DNA of 20,000 nucleotides from an uncultured virus (IMG/VR IMGVR_UViG_3300035337_000237) (lineage: Duplodnaviria > Heunggongvirae > Uroviricota > Caudoviricetes). The position numbers and the translations under genes are program-made. Position 1 is the first letter of the stretch. Each line of letters begins with the position of its first letter. The notes beneath the pieces are model-generated. The model was not told where the DNA came from and made no database searches. It saw nothing but the letters and a program-made list of their open reading frames with translations. Shown in pieces: positions 3,313 through 17,461 of this stretch. The DNA is taken from the IMG/VR virus record IMGVR_UViG_3300035337_000237; one strand, 5' to 3'.

Positions 3313-6300
3313 ATGACTGAAAATCAAAAAGCATATCAGATTCTTTTTGATTACGAGGATATTCCGACATTAAAACGTTTTGCTCTGGATAATTCACGGA
3401 TGAGACTTTGTTTAGGTCCATTTGGATGCCTGTCTTCCGATACGGAATTTCTAACTCCTGCCGGTTGGAAGAAAATATGTGATTATACAGAGACGGATAT
3501 ATTAGCTGAGTTTGATTTATCTACATCAAGAATATTTTTTCATAAACCATCTGATTATATAAAATTACCTTGCGATTCTTTCCTTCATTTAAAAAATAGA
3601 TACGGCATTGACCAGTTATTAAGTGATGAACATATTGTTCTTTTTAATACAGCTTTTAAACCAGAGGAGTGGAGAACAATCCCGGCTGGAGAACTTGCCG
3701 GGAAACATAATTCGCTTAATGATGGATGGTCGGGAAGAATACCAACAATATTTAAAGCTCCGGAAACTAATGGTATTGACTTAACCGGTAATGAAATTCG
3801 TTTAATGGTTGCAGTATCAGCCGATGGTCATTTCTCCAAAAAAAGTAATACAAATAGATGTCATATATGCGTTAGGAAAGAACGTAAAAAAATAAGATTA
3901 AGAATGTTATTAACGGAATGTGGAATTGATTGGAATGAACGAAATTATGAGGCGCGTCCGACTGAAACAACTTTTGATTTTGACGCTCCGGAAAGAAATA
4001 AATTACTGTGGAAGTATTTTAATGCTGATGAATCTCAATTAGCAATTATAGCTGACGAGTTTGTACATTGGGATGGATGTCTTGATTGTTATGGCGGAAG
4101 AATATATGCTTCGACAATAAAAGAGAATGCGGATTTTATTCAGTATGTTTTGACTACCACTGGAGTGCGCGCTACCATTGCGAAAATAAATTACAATAAT
4201 GATAAATGGAAAACCGGGTATAGAGTTTATGCAAATACAGGAACAAATTTTTTATCGATGAGAAACGCTCCAAAAATAGAAAGAGTTCCTTCTCCTGATG
4301 GTTTTAAATATTGTTTTAAAACATCAACTGGTTTTTTTGTTGCCAGAAGAAATGGTAAAATATTTATAACTGGAAATTCGGCGAAAAGCAGCGCATGCGT
4401 AATGGAGGTTATCCGCCGTGCGCTGGCGCAAACACCTTCTCCTGATGGAATACGCAGGAGCAGATGGGCTGTGGTGAGGAACACCTATTCGATGCTGAAA
4501 GATACAACTATAAAAACTTTTCATGATTGGTTTCCTCCTAAATTATTTGGAGAATACAGGGTTACCGACCATACATATATTATAACAAAATTTCCAGGAG
4601 TCCATCTGGAAATTATGTTTCGCGCTCTTGACCGACCGGATCAAGTTTCAAATTTATTGTCCCTCGAAGTAACTGGCGCTTGGTTTAATGAAGCACGCGA
4701 GATACCTATTGCTATCATTGATGCTATGGATGGAAGAATTGGGAGGTATCCTAGTGGGAGAGATGGCGGGGCAAGTTGGTATGGTATTATTATGGACTCG
4801 AATCCTCCATCAGATGACTCAGTATTGTATAAACGTTTTGAAGTCATCCGACCGGAGGGCTGGAAAATATTTAAACAACCATCAGGGTTATCAGTCCATG
4901 CGGAAAATACAAAACACCTCCCGAAAAACTATTATATCAATCTTGCCAAAGGCAAAGATGAAATGTATAAACGTATCTATATTGACGGGCAGTATGGGTA
5001 CCTTGTCAGCGGGAAACCGGTATTCCAGTCATTTAGAGACAATATCCATGTCGCGCCCCATCAACTTGAGCCGCAAAAGGGATTAGATGTTTTGGTAGGG
5101 ATGGATTTTGCCCTTCAGCCAGCTTGTATTATTGGTCAAATTACAACCCTTGGTCAACTTCAAATATTAGACGAGGTGGTGTCTGAGGGTATGGGATTGC
5201 GTCAATTCTGTGATAATAAACTTCTTCCACTTCTTCGTCTTAAATACTTTGGTATGAACGTTATGGGATTTGGAGACCCCTCCGGGGTTGCCCGTGCGCC
5301 GACAGATGAGTCCACCTGTTTTGAAGTTCTTCAGGGGCCGGAAGTGGGTCTGCGCAATATTGTTCCGGCTCCAACCAATGCTATTCTTCCCCGGGTGGCT
5401 GCTGTGGAAAATTTCCTGAATAAAATGTATGCGGGAGAACCTTCTTTTATCCTTTCTCCCAACTGCCATTATCTCCGTAAAGCCATGAACGGCGGGTATC
5501 ATTATGAAAAGGATCCGAGAAGTATGGGCGAGGAATACAAAATCATGCCAGTGAAGAACTTCTCGAGTCATTGTTGTTTTAGTGGAAAAACCATGATTCT
5601 TACACCAACCGGTGAAAAAAGAATTGATGAAATCAGAGCGGGGGATTTTGTTGTTACACCCTTTGGAAACCGGAAAGTAATTGCAGCAGGATTGACACAC
5701 AAAAAAACTAAAGTTATTGAGATAACTTTTTCAGATGAAAGGAAAATTGAATGCACTGAAGATCATGAATTTATAAAATCAAACAAAAGTATTGCAAAGA
5801 GTAATGCTTTGCGATATAGTGATGTCCTGCAAGATTATAATTCATGGAGGACATTACAATGGAGCATCCAGAGTTTATTGAGTTTGAAGAAAAGAAATAC
5901 CGGCTTTCGTCAGGTAATTACTACAGGGTCGAAAATTGGAGAAAGGCAACATGCAATCTTCACAGAGCTGTTTGGGAAAGTCATAATAAATGTAAAGTTC
6001 CTGAAGGATATGATATCCACCATATTGATGGAAATGTATTTAATAATGATATTTCCAATCTTGAGGCCATCCATGGTTCCGAACATTCCAGATTCCACCT
6101 GTTTGAAAGAATTAAAAACGGAACCTGGGATTTTAAAAAAAGTCTCGAATTGGCGCGGGAAGCAGCGAAATCCTGGCATGGGTCTCCTGAAGGAATCAAG
6201 TGGCATAGTAAACATGGAAAAGAAACATGGGTTGACAGAAAAATTTATATCACATGTTGTCTGTATTGCGGGAAAAATATTGAAGCTTCATTCCCGTCAA

Positions 6301-6666
6301 GAAAGAAATTCTGTAATGCAAACTGCCAAAATAGATATAGATACTACAGTGGAAAAGACAACGTTCAAAGAACGTGTGTTATTTGTGGTAAAAACTTTAC
6401 AGCGAATAAATATTCTAAAATCAAAACCTGTGCCAAGGATTGTGCAAATATCTCAACTTCCAGAACTAAAAGATGTATATAATATTACCGTAGACATTGA
6501 TCATGTTTTTTACGCGAATGGTATCTTGTCTTGTAATTGCGATGCTCTTGAATATCTTTGCATGTTTATTGCCGAGCGTGATATTCATGATAAACGCTGG
6601 AAAGATTTAAGTTCAAAAGTAAATTTAACAAACTATAAACCAGTGAATTCAATCGGGGGATACTAA
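3313..6666 (+). CDS. terL: Terminase large subunit precursor with two inteins (1117 aa; spliced product about 479 aa)
   Basis: Splicing restores Walker A GPFG|SAKS. Also RSRWAVVRNTY, Walker B-like GAWFNEARE, nuclease motifs VGMDFALQPA, GDPSG and SHC|CDALEYL. Lies directly upstream of the portal. Confidence 0.93.
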   Translation: MTENQKAYQILFDYEDIPTLKRFALDNSRMRLCLGPFGCLSSDTEFLTPAGWKKICDYTETDILAEFDLSTSRIFFHKPSDYIKLPCDSFLHLKNRYGIDQLLSDEHIVLFNTAFKPEEWRTIPAGELAGKHNSLNDGWSGRIPTIFKAPETNGIDLTGNEIRLMVAVSADGHFSKKSNTNRCHICVRKERKKIRLRMLLTECGIDWNERNYEARPTETTFDFDAPERNKLLWKYFNADESQLAIIADEFVHWDGCLDCYGGRIYASTIKENADFIQYVLTTTGVRATIAKINYNNDKWKTGYRVYANTGTNFLSMRNAPKIERVPSPDGFKYCFKTSTGFFVARRNGKIFITGNSAKSSACVMEVIRRALAQTPSPDGIRRSRWAVVRNTYSMLKDTTIKTFHDWFPPKLFGEYRVTDHTYIITKFPGVHLEIMFRALDRPDQVSNLLSLEVTGAWFNEAREIPIAIIDAMDGRIGRYPSGRDGGASWYGIIMDSNPPSDDSVLYKRFEVIRPEGWKIFKQPSGLSVHAENTKHLPKNYYINLAKGKDEMYKRIYIDGQYGYLVSGKPVFQSFRDNIHVAPHQLEPQKGLDVLVGMDFALQPACIIGQITTLGQLQILDEVVSEGMGLRQFCDNKLLPLLRLKYFGMNVMGFGDPSGVARAPTDESTCFEVLQGPEVGLRNIVPAPTNAILPRVAAVENFLNKMYAGEPSFILSPNCHYLRKAMNGGYHYEKDPRSMGEEYKIMPVKNFSSHCCFSGKTMILTPTGEKRIDEIRAGDFVVTPFGNRKVIAAGLTHKKTKVIEITFSDERKIECTEDHEFIKSNKSIAKSNALRYSDVLQDYNSWRTLQWSIQSLLSLKKRNTGFRQVITTGSKIGERQHAIFTELFGKVIINVKFLKDMISTILMEMYLIMIFPILRPSMVPNIPDSTCLKELKTEPGILKKVSNWRGKQRNPGMGLLKESSGIVNMEKKHGLTEKFISHVVCIAGKILKLHSRQERNSVMQTAKIDIDTTVEKTTFKERVLFVVKTLQRINILKSKPVPRIVQISQLPELKDVYNITVDIDHVFYANGILSCNCDALEYLCMFIAERDIHDKRWKDLSSKVNLTNYKPVNSIGGY
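3427..4377 (+). mobile_element. Intein 1 (317 aa) with LAGLIDADG/DOD endonuclease, inserted in TerL Walker A
   Basis: Block A CLSSDTEFLT, block B LSDEHIV, DOD motifs LMVAVSADGHF and FVHWDG, block F/G KYCFKTSTGFFVARRNGKIFITGN followed by +1 Ser. Confidence 0.92.
5792..5820 (+). promoter_or_regulatory. Candidate internal sigma70 promoter for the nested HNH gene
   Basis: TTGCAA-N17-TATAGT, ending 38 nt upstream of ATG 5859; SD GGAGG at 5846-5850. Confidence 0.45.
5859..6482 (+). CDS. HNH endonuclease with C-terminal Cys zinc-finger repeats, nested out of frame inside intein 2 (207 aa; 212 aa from ATG 5844)
   Basis: LHRAVWE...IHHIDGNVFNNDISNLEAIHGSEHSRFH is an HNH motif. CxxC pairs CLYC/CNANC and CVIC/CAKDC. 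SD GGAGG lies 8 nt before ATG 5859. Confidence 0.9.
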   Translation: MEHPEFIEFEEKKYRLSSGNYYRVENWRKATCNLHRAVWESHNKCKVPEGYDIHHIDGNVFNNDISNLEAIHGSEHSRFHLFERIKNGTWDFKKSLELAREAAKSWHGSPEGIKWHSKHGKETWVDRKIYITCCLYCGKNIEASFPSRKKFCNANCQNRYRYYSGKDNVQRTCVICGKNFTANKYSKIKTCAKDCANISTSRTKRCI

Positions 6667-9622: not shown

Positions 9623-10639
9623 ATGAAAGAAAAACCGGATGAAAACACTGCCGCAGAAATTCTGTCACAACAGAATGAAGTATTTAATGAAGCATTTAAT
9701 GAAGCAGAAGTAAAAAGTGAAGATGGGGTCCCTGCTTCCGGTCTGCCCGATCCCGGTGATTTAAGTAAAACCAAACCGGAACCATTTCATGCAAAAGGTG
9801 ATGAACCATCTCCCGTTGATGATAAAAAATCCGGTACACCCGCTGAACCGCCTCCTTTGGAAGATTACGAACAAAAATGGAAAAGTCTCAACGGGATAAT
9901 CAAGTCTAAAGAACAGCAGTTTCAAACCCGCGAATCAGAACTTTTAACAGAGATAGAGAAGTTAAAGACTCCACCGCCTTCTCTTCCTGTTGATGATAAA
10001 AATAAAAAAGTGGAAACCGGACTGGATGTCGAAACTCTTTTAAAAAATCTTAATCTTAACGATGAAGAAAAGGCCATGTTAAAAGAGTATGATGAAGAAT
10101 TCGGATTAGTTTCCAGAGTGGAAAGTTTAAGACTCGGTAAAGCAATCGAATCAATTTACGGTATACTGAACGAAGGATTCCAGAAACAACTCAAAGAAGT
10201 AAAAAATGAATTCCAGAGTCAGTTGAAACCGACCGCAGAGTTTGTCGAAAAGACAACCAGGGAACGGGAAGAGGATGCAGTCAGCAACCACTTCAATACA
10301 ATCGAAACGGCTTATCCTGATTATAAGACCTACCATGAAAATGGTAAAATCATCGAATGGATTCAAAGTAAACCGGCATATCTCCAAAAGGGAATGCTGG
10401 AAGTTTGCCAGTCGGGAGCAGCCGGGGAAGTTATTTCTCTTTTGGACGACTTCTATAAAGAAAGTAATATCCCGGTAACCAGTAATCCGCCTCAGAATAA
10501 TGTTGTGGGAATGGACAGGGCCAAAAAAGACCGGAAGGCCGCCTTGACTCCTCCGCAAAGTAAACGCGGCGCAATAAATCCAAACCTTAAACCATCTGAT
10601 GATTTCGATGGAGCGTTTGATGAGGCGATAAGTAAATAA
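9623..10639 (+). CDS. Putative capsid scaffolding protein (about 338 aa)
   Basis: Acidic, Pro-rich N-terminus and coiled coil, ends DDFDGAFDEAISK, directly before the capsid gene. SD GAGGGG favours ATG 9623 over 9608. Confidence 0.75.
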   Translation: MKEKPDENTAAEILSQQNEVFNEAFNEAEVKSEDGVPASGLPDPGDLSKTKPEPFHAKGDEPSPVDDKKSGTPAEPPPLEDYEQKWKSLNGIIKSKEQQFQTRESELLTEIEKLKTPPPSLPVDDKNKKVETGLDVETLLKNLNLNDEEKAMLKEYDEEFGLVSRVESLRLGKAIESIYGILNEGFQKQLKEVKNEFQSQLKPTAEFVEKTTREREEDAVSNHFNTIETAYPDYKTYHENGKIIEWIQSKPAYLQKGMLEVCQSGAAGEVISLLDDFYKESNIPVTSNPPQNNVVGMDRAKKDRKAALTPPQSKRGAINPNLKPSDDFDGAFDEAISK

Positions 10640-10651
10640 GGAGAAAATTAA

Positions 10652-10756
10652 ATGAATTTAACTACTTACGGAAATATAACTCCTAGAACTGCCGCCTTTG
10701 TTGCGGTGGATTTGTTAAAAAGAGCCATGCCGTATCTGGTGCTGGAAAAATTCGGT
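10652..10756 (+). CDS. Major capsid protein exon 1 (N4-gp56-like family)
   Basis: SD AAGGAG; encodes MNLTTYGNITPRTAAFVAVDLLKRAMPYLVLEKFG, which joins exon 2 in frame as LEKFG|QAKSLP. Not in the ORF track. Confidence 0.88.
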
Positions 10757-11704
10757 GGACGATAGTTTGGCCGAATAAAAAGTCCTTAAAGTCGGGGAAC
10801 ATCCTATAATAGGACAATCCCGAGCCAATCCGTAATGGAAGGTGTAACGACTATGAACGACGATGAATTTAGAGGAGCAGTAATAGGAATGATTTTAGGA
10901 GATGGAAGTTTATCGCATTGTGCTACAGGGAATACTAACTCGCATATAGATTATGCTCATTGCATGAAACAAAAAGAGTATGCTCTATGGAAGGCTGATA
11001 TACTTAAAAATCTCACCACCGTTACGATCAAAGATGGAATTAGTAAATGCAAAGGGAAAGAATATTCAAAAGTGAGAGTTTTAACAAAGGCTCATCCTGT
11101 TTACACTCATTTATGGAAACGATTTTATCATCAAGGAAGAAAAACGATAGATTCTTTTTTGATGGAACAACTCACTCCTTTGGGTTTGGCAATCTGGTAT
11201 CAAGACGATGGACATCTTAAAAATCATGAAGATTATTTAACTCCGATGTTGGAAACAAATTGTTTTAATGTGGCAGAGCATTTAATAATGACAAAAGTTC
11301 TTGCCGATAAATTCCATCTTGAATTTCGCTCGAATCATCTTAATGCAAAATATTTAATGTTGAGACTTCGCCGAAAAGACAGGGAAAAATTCTTTGATAT
11401 TATACGAGAATTTATTCATCCTACAATGGAATATAAAATTAAGGATGATGGAAAAACATTAAGAGAATTTGGCGATCCGATGGAATGCAAATGCGAAATA
11501 TGCGGAGAGAAAATTATTAAAGCATTTACCTTGCGTAATGATGATCGCCGTGGAAGATTTTGTCGCAAATGTTATAATTCTCATCGTTCAATAATTGGGA
11601 CGACTCGCAATCAATATAGTGAGTCAAAAGATAGTCTGGACCCAGTAGTAATACCGGGAGTTTGTTAGAAATAATAAACCAAGGGAAACCTTGTAACAAT
11701 GATG
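10757..11704 (+). mobile_element. Group I self-splicing intron (948 nt) in the major capsid gene
   Basis: Exon ends in U and intron ends in G. P1 AUUCGGU/GCCGAAU with a U-G pair at the splice site; P10 UAGUUUG/CAAGCUA; P/Q-like GUCGGGGAAC/AAUCCCGAGC; P7 GACUA (10849-53)/UAGUC (11632-36); P8 GACUCGC/GUGAGUC; GNRA-capped P9 hairpins. Confidence 0.9.
10853..11668 (+). CDS. Intron-encoded two-motif LAGLIDADG homing endonuclease with a C-terminal Cys4 module (alternative start 10835)
   Basis: AVIGMILGDGSL and PLGLAIWYQDDG motifs; CEIC...CRKC; SD-like GAAGGTG before ATG 10853. Confidence 0.88.
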   Translation: MNDDEFRGAVIGMILGDGSLSHCATGNTNSHIDYAHCMKQKEYALWKADILKNLTTVTIKDGISKCKGKEYSKVRVLTKAHPVYTHLWKRFYHQGRKTIDSFLMEQLTPLGLAIWYQDDGHLKNHEDYLTPMLETNCFNVAEHLIMTKVLADKFHLEFRSNHLNAKYLMLRLRRKDREKFFDIIREFIHPTMEYKIKDDGKTLREFGDPMECKCEICGEKIIKAFTLRNDDRRGRFCRKCYNSHRSIIGTTRNQYSESKDSLDPVVIPGVC

Positions 11705-12583
11705 CAAGCTAAAAGTTTACCTGCAAACAAAACGCAGTCTATGAAGTTCAGGCGTTATAACAGTCTGGGACTTCGCACAACGGCATTGACTGAAGGCGTA
11801 ACTCCTGTGGCTGATAAAATGACCGCAACAGATATAACGGCAACCTTAAGTCAGTACGGCGGCTTAATCGGTATTACTGATGTTGTTCAGGATACCCATG
11901 AAGACCCGGTTATGCAGGAAGGAATTGCCGTTATCGGTGAACAGGCGGCCAAGACAGTTGAAACATTACGTTATAATGTGCTCAAGGCGTGCAGCAACGT
12001 TTTCTATGCGAATTCAGTTGCCTCCCGTGATTTAGTCGCAGCGGCCATTTCCCGTGCCGACCAGCGTCGGATTGTCCGCGCACTGGAACGTCAGGAAGCC
12101 GGATTTGTAACCAATATTGTCAAATCCACTCCGTCGTTCAATACCGAATCCATCCTCCCGGCTTATGCCGGTGTAACCCATGTCGACCTTACATCCGATA
12201 TACGCGGACTTACGGGATTCACTTCTGTAGCGGATTACGGAAAAGTCTCTCCATGGGAAACAGAAATTGGTTCCTGTGAAGATGTCCGCTATCTGAAATC
12301 CACAATCTTTACTCCCTATAATGGCGTGGGCGCGACAACTTCAACCATGATAGCGACCGGCGGTAACTGTGATGTTTACCCGGTAATGTATTTCGGCAAA
12401 GACGCTTACGGGTTTATCGCTCTCAAAGGCAAGTATGCGATTACTCCCATGGTGGTCAACCCGAATCCGAGTATTGCTGATCCATTAGCGCAAAGAGGTT
12501 CAATTTCCTGGAAAACCATGCAAACAACGGTTATTTTAAATGACGCCTGGATGGCGGTTGCCGAGGTTGCATGTACGAATTAA
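11705..12583 (+). CDS. Major capsid protein exon 2 (spliced protein 327 aa)
   Basis: MKFRRY, LTEGVTP, LSQYG, EIGSCEDVRY, DVYP, DPLAQRGSISWK and ILNDAWM are motifs typical of N4-gp56-like capsid proteins. Confidence 0.9.
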   Translation, partial: QAKSLPANKTQSMKFRRYNSLGLRTTALTEGVTPVADKMTATDITATLSQYGGLIGITDVVQDTHEDPVMQEGIAVIGEQAAKTVETLRYNVLKACSNVFYANSVASRDLVAAAISRADQRRIVRALERQEAGFVTNIVKSTPSFNTESILPAYAGVTHVDLTSDIRGLTGFTSVADYGKVSPWETEIGSCEDVRYLKSTIFTPYNGVGATTSTMIATGGNCDVYPVMYFGKDAYGFIALKGKYAITPMVVNPNPSIADPLAQRGSISWKTMQTTVILNDAWMAVAEVACTN

Positions 12584-15612: not shown

Positions 15613-16001
15613 TGGCATATAAACGTCTAAGTTTAACCCGTGGAAATTCGCATACTTACGGAGTAACCTTCAAAAACTCTGCCGGTATTCCCTATAATAT
15701 TAAAAACTGGGTATTAAAATTTACTCTCAAGACTAATTATGACCTTCCAGACTCTGAAGCGTCTCTTCAAAAAATAGTTACTTCATTTGACGACACAACA
15801 TCCGGGACATCCGGCAGCGCTCAGATTTCTCTTGTTCCATCCGATACAATCAATCTGGACGTTGGAGTTTATGATTATGATATTTCTGTAACAACTGGTT
15901 CTGCCAATGAATTTATAACTGTAATGAAAGGCAGATTTGACCTTGAATATGGAGTTACAAAAACTCCAGGAACTGCGGGGACAGCGGGAACAGCGCCATG
16001 A
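15612..16001 (+). CDS. BppU-N-like Ig-fold fibre attachment or structural protein
   Basis: TGATG coupling; pattern LTRGNSHTYGVTF...AQISLVPSDT..LDVGVYDYDISV; coupled to the fibre gene. Confidence 0.6.
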   Translation: MAYKRLSLTRGNSHTYGVTFKNSAGIPYNIKNWVLKFTLKTNYDLPDSEASLQKIVTSFDDTTSGTSGSAQISLVPSDTINLDVGVYDYDISVTTGSANEFITVMKGRFDLEYGVTKTPGTAGTAGTAP

Positions 16002-17461
16002 GTGATACTGATATAATCGTAACAATAAGTGATGCCACTGATATTAACGTTATACTGGATAATGTAGGATTGTCCGGGTCTTCCGGCACCAGTGGGACTT
16101 CTTCTTTTGGGAGTTCCGGCACCAGCGGGACGTCTGGAGTAGATGGAACATTTTTGGGAACTTCGGGTAGTTCAGGAACCTCAGGTAGTCCAGGAATAAA
16201 TGGAATAGATGGAATAGATGGAATAAATGGAACATCCGGTTCATCGGGTAGTTCAGGCAGTTCAGGCAGTAGCGGCACCTCCGGCACCGGCACCAACGGC
16301 ACATCAGGCACTTCCGGCACATCAGGTAGTTCAGGCTCTTCAGGAACAAATGGTGTTTCCGGGTCTTCCGGTTCCAGCGGCACAAGTGGCACAGGGAGTC
16401 CGGGAACTTCAGGAACTTCAGGCAGTTCAGGGACATCCGGGATTGGAATAGATGGTTCTTCCGGTAGTTCTGGAACCTCAGGAATTGGTGTAAGCGGTTC
16501 GAGTGGCACGTCGGGTAGTTCTGGGACCTCAGGTATTGATGGTTCATCTGGAACGTCCGGCACCTCAGGAACTGGTGTAAGCGGCTCTTCCGGTACTTCC
16601 GGTTCGAGTGGTATCTCCGGTTCGAGTGGCACATCAGGCACCTCAGGGGTAGATGGAACATTTTACGGCAGCAGTGGTACCAGTGGTAATTCCGGCAGTT
16701 CAGGAACCAGTGGAACCTCAGGTATATCAGGTACATCAGGAACTTCCGGCGTGGGTTCTTCAGGCACATCAGGTATAAATGGAAGTTCCGGCACGTCAGG
16801 CAGTTCGGGAATTGGTGGGTCTTCCGGCAGTTCAGGTACGTCAGGCACCTCAGGATTAGACGGTACATTTTATGGCAGCAGCGGTACTTCCGGTTCCAGC
16901 GGGTCTTCCGGTACCAATGGGGTAGACGGCACAAATGGCTCCAGCGGTACCTCAGGTAGTTCGGGGTCACATGGCAGTTCAGGCACCAGTGGTTCCAGTG
17001 GAAGTTCAGGGAGTTCGGGCACTGGTGTAAGTGGTTCTTCAGGAACGTCTGGCACCTCAGGAGTAGACGGTACATTTTACGGTAGCAGTGGCACCAGTGG
17101 CAGTTCCGGCACCAGTTCCGGCACTAATTACTTAGGCGCAGGTTCTATCGCCGTATCAGGAACATCGGGAACCTTCTCTCTTGATTTTTCACAGGGGAAC
17201 GGTTTCTACGGAACGGCTAATTTATCAGGGATGAAAGTTGCTTTCTCCAATCCGGCGGACGGTCAGGTTTACCGTTTCGCAATCAGGCAGGGAACAGCAG
17301 GCACCGCAACAATTACCGGATGGACTCAAATGGACGGAACAAATGGTTTTTGGCTTGGCGGCGGAACAGCGGGAACATTATCAACAGCGGCGGGAAAACG
17401 GGATGTGGCTACTTTCTGGTATGAAAATAGTATTTATCTGGGAAGTTATCTTAATGGGTAA
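15998..17461 (+). CDS. Gly-X-Y (GSS/GTS) repeat fibre-like protein with a globular C-terminal domain (487 aa)
   Basis: About 350 aa of G-[ST]-S triplets and a beta-rich C-terminal domain (SLDFSQGN...FSNPADG...IRQG...LSTAAGKRDVATF). Confidence 0.8.
   Translation: MSDTDIIVTISDATDINVILDNVGLSGSSGTSGTSSFGSSGTSGTSGVDGTFLGTSGSSGTSGSPGINGIDGIDGINGTSGSSGSSGSSGSSGTSGTGTNGTSGTSGTSGSSGSSGTNGVSGSSGSSGTSGTGSPGTSGTSGSSGTSGIGIDGSSGSSGTSGIGVSGSSGTSGSSGTSGIDGSSGTSGTSGTGVSGSSGTSGSSGISGSSGTSGTSGVDGTFYGSSGTSGNSGSSGTSGTSGISGTSGTSGVGSSGTSGINGSSGTSGSSGIGGSSGSSGTSGTSGLDGTFYGSSGTSGSSGSSGTNGVDGTNGSSGTSGSSGSHGSSGTSGSSGSSGSSGTGVSGSSGTSGTSGVDGTFYGSSGTSGSSGTSSGTNYLGAGSIAVSGTSGTFSLDFSQGNGFYGTANLSGMKVAFSNPADGQVYRFAIRQGTAGTATITGWTQMDGTNGFWLGGGTAGTLSTAAGKRDVATFWYENSIYLGSYLNG

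Follow-up and report, generated by a model that had tools for sequence, protein, structure and literature searches.

A group I intron of 948 nt splits the only major capsid gene of a 68.6-kb phage; it likely splices itself out to leave a gene for a 327-aa capsid protein and likely homes by means of a predicted nuclease encoded in its own open reading frame (ORF), a reading to which we give a probability of about 0.9. The gene is split at exact boundaries by an element with a paired core and an intact ORF set within that core, and anatomy and comparison make splicing and nuclease-driven homing the most likely account of it. The window that we analyzed, 20,000 nucleotides long, forms the end of a contig of 68,576 nt whose termini overlap by 141 nt and which is probably a complete phage genome.

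The window holds a head module with an intein-bearing terminase, a 785-aa connector-family protein and a 343-aa ORF that is the probable scaffold, and then the capsid, adaptor and tail genes. Searching the whole genome we found a single capsid gene without a second copy (tblastn) and a single group I core motif (motif scan), and an Rfam search of the genome outside the window gave no matches. The large terminase subunit (window 3313-6666) has one intein starting near residue 39 and another starting near residue 755; the latter is open in the terminase frame and contains an HNH/zinc-finger ORF (5844-6482) in another frame, an arrangement of which examples are already described in the available text of a recent preprint (bioRxiv 10.1101/2025.01.02.630785). 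Elsewhere in the window, a 487-aa ORF of long Gly/Ser/Thr repeats (15998-17461) probably encodes a tail-fibre-like protein and its neighbouring genes repeat similar short motifs, and upstream of the packaging module a non-coding-looking stretch of imperfect direct repeats seen in ORF translations (1033-1361) is a possible origin or packaging site.

Exon 2 scored 258.6 bits against TIGR04387 (N4-gp56 family major capsid protein; curated cut-off 60). Its alignment begins at model position 33, and the ORF called at 11699..12583 is therefore truncated at its N terminus, as the initial annotation had argued. Several 293-aa database entries (P0001-P0003, P0006) are likewise N-truncated capsids. Removal of 10757-11704 yields a protein of 327 aa, which translation of the joined exons confirmed; the nearest capsid from a cultured phage is 43% identical.

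The initial annotation had proposed the split by a group I intron, to be checked against intronless capsids and given up if homologues lacked the segment encoded by exon 1. Many full-length database homologues of 326-329 aa align to both exons without a gap, and the exon 1 segment is conserved and in register in intronless relatives. Among 80 viral loci encoding close capsids, many of them near-copies of each other, 63 join the exons directly, 13 carry this intron and 4 are cut short. Together with the paired core described below, the gap-free fusion of the same exons bears out the split.

Both splice sites lie where they had been placed. Exon 1 ends in TTCGGT, and U10756 stands opposite G10770 of GCCGAA (10770-75), which confirms the diagnostic U-G pair in the sequence. 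At the other end, TAGTTTG (10763-69) pairs with the CAAGCTA that follows G11704, giving a P10 of seven out of seven pairs, one of them G-U. No other G at 11600-11800 has a 7/7 match to the guide directly after it (across the whole window, 11 of 4563 G positions do); P10 is shorter in some relatives. Exon 1 could be seen in 12 intron-bearing loci, and in each of them it ends in TTCGGT; among the 59 intronless loci counted, by contrast, just 10 have GGT as codon 35. A requirement of the intron for U at -1 would produce this difference. The frame of exon 1 closes at TAG 10763-65, two codons into the intron. Contigs of four low-share sequencing runs, probably DNA, contained an unspliced fragment of exon 1 and intron and one intronless relative; the only joint found in these contigs, X1, is a diverged intronless allele with C rather than U at -1.

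Table 1. Features of the split capsid gene and its intron (window positions)
Feature	Position	Strand	Basis
Shine-Dalgarno-like site AAGGAG of capsid gene	10638..10643	+	sequence; function inferred
Capsid exon 1, 35 codons, ends in U of U-G splice-site pair	10652..10756 (105 nt)	+	sequence, intronless homologues
Group I intron, 948 nt, IA-like: P7.1 present, no P2, no P7.2	10757..11704	+	partial Rfam, homologues, covariation
P1 (10750-56 with 10770-76) and internal guide; P10 strand 10763-69	10750..10776	+	pairing, covariation
P3 5' strand, partner 11595-11601	10782..10788	+	modelling, covariation
P4, short P5, P6, P6a; GGAAGG 10837-42, predicted nuclease ribosome-binding site	10792..10843	+	ribosome-binding function inferred
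P7 5' strand 10847-53 (bulge C10848, guanosine-site G10849), P7.1 5' strand 10854-60	10847..10860	+	modelling, covariation
271-aa ORF: two-motif I-SceI-like LAGLIDADG (about 1-197), putative zinc finger C214, C217, C237, C240, core-encoded tail	10853..11668	+	
P7.1 3' strand 11584-90, P3 3' strand 11595-601, P8 hairpin 11602-25, J8/7, P7 3' strand 11632-37	11584..11637	+	
P9 11641-58 (GUAA loop), P9.1 11660-79, P9.2 11680-93, terminal G11704	11641..11704	+	
Capsid exon 2, 292 codons plus stop, N4-gp56 family major capsid protein	11705..12583	+	profile matches

Exon 2 might instead be translated alone from ATG 11699 or 11702, as a capsid that lacks the 35 N-terminal residues and needs no splicing; most intron copies do have an in-frame ATG directly before exon 2, which gene callers use. 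However, this ATG is made of the intron's last bases, ending in the terminal G, and it reads ACG in L095 and AAG in L098. The sole purine run before exon 2 is 14 nt away within the P9.2 stem, whereas exon 1, kept in register by intronless relatives, is preceded by a strong Shine-Dalgarno site. We consider independent translation of exon 2 very improbable and favour the spliced 327-aa product.

The intron combines a U-G pair in P1 and a guide, a terminal G and P10, and a P4-P6 and P3-P7-P8 core with a bulged guanosine site, all hallmarks of group I. The Rfam search suggested in the initial annotation gave a mixed outcome: RF00028 had no match on the whole window and, on the 1-kb region, two partial matches of 22-23 bits that fell below the gathering score of 50 and were separated by the ORF. 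According to the available text of one survey, such fragmentary matches are usual for ORF-bearing phage introns (PMC11878797). We modelled the fold by hand on seven aligned copies, in which P4, P7 and P9 show two-sided changes; the model has no P2 and no evident P9.0. Both halves of the core fold better than shuffled sequences (z -3.0 and -3.6). Despite the low Rfam scores, the comparison of copies supports the presence of a full group I core.

The low Rfam scores could also point to a dead intron in a defective phage. Against this, compensatory changes keep the core pairs, the ORF is under purifying selection (see below), near-identical intron copies occur on several independent contigs and the genome has no second capsid gene. 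We regard a dead element as scarcely credible, and treat the intron as a probably functional ribozyme in what follows.

The more unusual feature, absent from the initial annotation, is the placement of the ORF within the ribozyme. A first model of P3, with the partner directly after P7 and the ORF in L8, was rejected, having a C-C mismatch and being broken in three of the seven copies. The downstream partner at 11595-11601, after the ORF and immediately before P8, is kept in all seven. Since the P3 partner lies beyond the ORF, the ORF loops out between P7 and P3, in L7.1; this loop is closed by a 7-bp stem (10854-60/11584-90), and 4 nt lie between the P7.1 stem and P3.

We examined the layout in 35 loci (28 distinct) with intron-like anchors that were picked from an 80-locus nuclease search. 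The P3 partner followed the ORF in 20 of the 28 distinct relatives and stood directly after P7 in 3, compared with matches in 41 of 664 cross-intron controls; for 8 of these 28 no P3 could be recovered. The top pair of P7 is Watson-Crick in 27/28, with four pair types, and the P7 bulge is C with A-U or U-A and A with G-C or C-G; a bulge that switches between C and A is a known group I pattern. Covariation is weaker for P7.1 than for P3: all six of six pairs form in 8/28 relatives versus 40/562 controls, and at five of six pairs (26/28 versus 300/562) the control is uninformative. P1 covaries with the exon, five Watson-Crick pairs plus the terminal U-G being present in 32/32 testable distinct relatives (35 distinct motif matches were found and 3 skipped). 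This set includes five exon/guide variants, plus a spurious pick for L193, whose true P1 is visible.

The position of P7.1 between P7 and P3 is the insertion typical of subgroup IA. In the available text on IA2 introns of T4-, SPO1- and T7-like phages, P7.1 and P7.2 are linked by GUA (PMC3428280); here we found no P7.2 outside the ORF loop. The absence of P2 fits subgroup IA1 as described in the accessible part of another report (PMC1995217). When the 5' half (window 10782-10861) was folded alone, the 5' strand of P3 and J3/4 paired with the start-codon region, a possible interim fold before transcription of the 3' core. The AUG itself is only partly paired when the 5' half is taken alone (unpaired probability 0.5-0.8).

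The ORF had been read as a LAGLIDADG gene, and this holds: its product matches PF03161 (E 5e-30) with two motifs, and I-SceI is the best sequence match. The predicted fold (pLDDT 81.5) has two LAGLIDADG helices with acidic residues in an I-SceI-like arrangement and best matches I-WcaI/I-SceI (PDB 6x1j and 1r7m; E 4e-14). Across 15 aligned nuclease proteins D17, D118, D119 and K195 do not vary and K97 hardly does; they align with I-SceI positions that have a catalytic role. Unlike I-SceI and I-WcaI, to which it is 22-24% identical, the protein is phage-encoded, its activity is predicted, and it has a C-terminal four-cysteine domain and a core-derived tail. The nearest nuclease from a cultured phage is 30% identical. 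Over the nuclease domain pN/pS is 0.17-0.31 (7 pairs), and by this measure the domain is under purifying selection; in the tail, where computable, the ratio is about 0.65-1.6. The tail is also predicted to be disordered, and a weakly constrained, disordered tail is the pattern expected of 'core creep' as outlined in the available text of PMC3073962.

Both ends of the ORF are built from core RNA. The AUG at 10853-55 consists of the last base of P7 and two bases of P7.1. GGAAGG, which precedes it by 10 nt, makes up the 3' strand of P6a and P6, and P3, P8, P7 and P9 supply the last 29 codons. A start codon is in frame at P7 in 26/28 distinct relatives (23 ATG, 3 GTG), and in 25/28 the ORF extends past the point where the P3 partner starts. 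An in-frame ATG further upstream in the window, at 10835, is not conserved, being ACG in L006, L011 and L013. In three loci (L008:3702-4064 on the minus strand, L009 and L099) the same intron has its loop L5 enlarged by about 406 bases, which encode a 121-aa antisense HNH nuclease and bring the number of nuclease genes in the intron to two.

A 720-nt P7.1 loop raises the question of help in splicing: the intron may be real and yet be able to splice over this distance only with a maturase, in the form of its own ORF product, or with a host chaperone. LAGLIDADG maturases exist, a bacterial Thermotoga case among them (PMC3984707, available text), the ORF is intact in nearly all full-length relatives and has the extra four-cysteine domain, and no ORF-less members turned up in searches that required the ORF or its start codon. 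However, all core helices are present, homing alone explains the purifying selection and the shared flanking tract described below, and P0148 lacks the C-terminal cysteine domain. We judge dependence on such a helper rather unlikely, and self-splicing remains our preferred reading.

The distribution of the intron is patchy. On the capsid tree, made by a quick method from 52 rows (48 of the 80 loci, three others and the window, near-duplicate and truncated loci being left out), intron presence requires at least six gains or losses, five of them forced by well-supported branches. L006, L011 and L013 are identical to the window from -9 to +17 around the insertion site and 16-19% different beyond +30. 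L013, which has the intron, and the intronless L012 encode almost identical capsids; 7 of their first 15 exon-2 bases differ, versus 30 of the next 690, and within those 15 bases L013 matches the window. The shared -9 to +17 flank looks like co-conversion, and the patchy distribution with the shared tract suggests homing, as far as comparison can tell. The flank is not universal: in L038 and L119 the intron is followed by an exon 2 that starts differently.

A phage might gain from the intron beyond its self-copying if the nuclease cut the capsid gene of intronless competitors and so lowered their yield. Such an effect is reported for phage PhiPA3 gp210 in the available text of PMC11620839, intronless close relatives coexist in the collections, and one sequencing run contained both the intronless relative X1 and a near-identical intron-bearing fragment. 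Ordinary homing accounts for these data as well, however, and we think a benefit of this kind improbable, keeping homing as the working explanation.

A 32-letter core pattern found 60 loci (35 distinct) in two collections; it was built from capsid-resident copies and is therefore biased to close kin. All but one of the 35 distinct matches lie in the N4-gp56 capsid family, the last being cut at a contig end. By site, 21 are at the position described here, 8 after Phe-Tyr-Gly near residue 86 and 3 after Gln-Val-Asp near the start, with 3 unplaced. Among 28 flanking exons from more distant nuclease relatives, 21 match PHROGs major-head families (16 of them phrog_1357), one more matches a capsid model of NCBIfam and one is a terminase.

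The same capsid family also holds other group I introns of about 700 nt, after Gly7 (L015, L018, L064, L069, L072) and after a Gly near residue 86 (L060-L063, L071). Their ORFs are LAGLIDADG-like with a single motif, span most of the core and often terminate at the 3' strand of P7; the insertion sites follow aromatic-Gly codons (TAYGGT, TTCGGT). Four capsid genes (L121, L129, L130, L144) apparently have two or more introns. In gut phages of about 95 kb (L156, L167, L169), introns of another gene encode more distant PF03161 nucleases on the 5' side of the core; the upstream peptide there resembles uracil-DNA glycosylase. A 68.3-kb contig, L102 (JAHEYD010000005.1), is 98% identical to the region described here, including the intron, and its bin is labelled Nitrosotalea, an archaeon. 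We rejected the Nitrosotalea (99%) and Thermodesulfovibrionales (69%) bins as host evidence, these being probably binned phage contigs.

Both the type of element and the type of location are familiar, and the system as such is not of a new kind. The initial annotation had called a LAGLIDADG-bearing intron in a capsid gene less usual. That remark is only partly right: LAGLIDADG ORFs are described as less typical of phage introns in the accessible text of PMC3984707 but do occur there, and capsid-gene introns were already published. In mycobacteriophage LittleE, splicing of a capsid intron with a LAGLIDADG-like ORF was shown by RT-PCR and N-terminal sequencing, and Tuc2009 is cited there as another case (Pope et al. 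2013, PMC3706429, available text). The LittleE intron, too, is of group I type in a major capsid gene, preceded by U, ending in G and about 0.8-0.9 kb long. Its ORF, however, is I-CreI-like, has 177 aa and lies on the opposite strand in the capsid gene of an HK97-like siphovirus, whereas ours is a sense, two-motif I-SceI-like ORF with a cysteine domain, in L7.1 of an intron in an N4-gp56-family gene, where splicing is deduced from the anatomy. In crAss-like Delta and Zeta phages, a different lineage from the present phage, group I introns interrupt metagenomic capsid genes, in some cases several in one gene, according to the available text of Yutin et al. 2021 (PMC7886860), and a PF03161 ORF is described in a Bacillus-phage polymerase intron (PMC11878797, in part).

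Overlap of ORF and core is likewise known as 'core creep', with T4 td/I-TevI, Bacillus nrdF, Synechococcus LSU and Pf-WMP3 I-PfoP3I as examples in the accessible portions of PMC3073962, PMC1995217 and PMC3428280. The present intron shares with them an ORF that reaches into P7/P3/P8/P9, ribosome sites hidden in structure and an in-frame stop just past the 5' splice site. The ORF sites listed in these portions are P1, P6/P6a and P8, whereas here the ORF body is in P7.1 and both ends are core. In the main texts of the open-access literature we found no description of introns in N4-gp56-family genes, and none of an intron whose ORF loops out of P7.1.

ORFs in L7.1 are listed in some tables of algal organelle introns. 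What appears to be new is the L7.1 layout in which the start codon falls in P7, an arrangement that a capsid-associated lineage has conserved.

From known group I chemistry, ribosomes translating exon 1 would stop at TAG 10763, P1 would set the 5' splice site after U10756, a guanosine bound at P7 would attack there, and P10 would align exon 2 for a ligation driven by G11704. In a co-infection, the predicted nuclease would cut intronless capsid alleles, and repair would copy the intron with a short flanking tract. Since the ribosome-binding site (P6a/P6), the AUG (P7/P7.1) and the last 29 codons are all core, splicing and nuclease translation should exclude each other in any one molecule: each RNA would be either folded for splicing or open for translation of the nuclease. 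Such exclusivity would hold nuclease output low on an abundant capsid message. The overlap implies competition between the two processes, which may be a selected control or merely tolerated. Tentatively, and with less than even confidence, we propose the intron as type member of an undescribed capsid-specialised lineage with a nuclease gene in L7.1, a core-built start, a splicing/translation switch, and residence at three N4-gp56 sites and in other capsid families.

These results have consequences for annotation, as database entries for N4-gp56-family capsids whose genes carry an intron of this family are systematically N-truncated, and the family escapes the standard Rfam model at its threshold. 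They add to the evidence that phage capsid genes, beyond those of DNA metabolism, are regular intron hosts. The family supplies diverse I-SceI-like nucleases with natural intron-plus/intron-minus target pairs (L013/L012), and the intron, with its start codon in P7, ribosome site in P6 and ORF tail in P3-P9, is a compact natural test of sequence sharing between ORF and ribozyme. If the proposed lineage and its switch are real, the switch would enable a selfish element to reside in the phage's most abundant late message.
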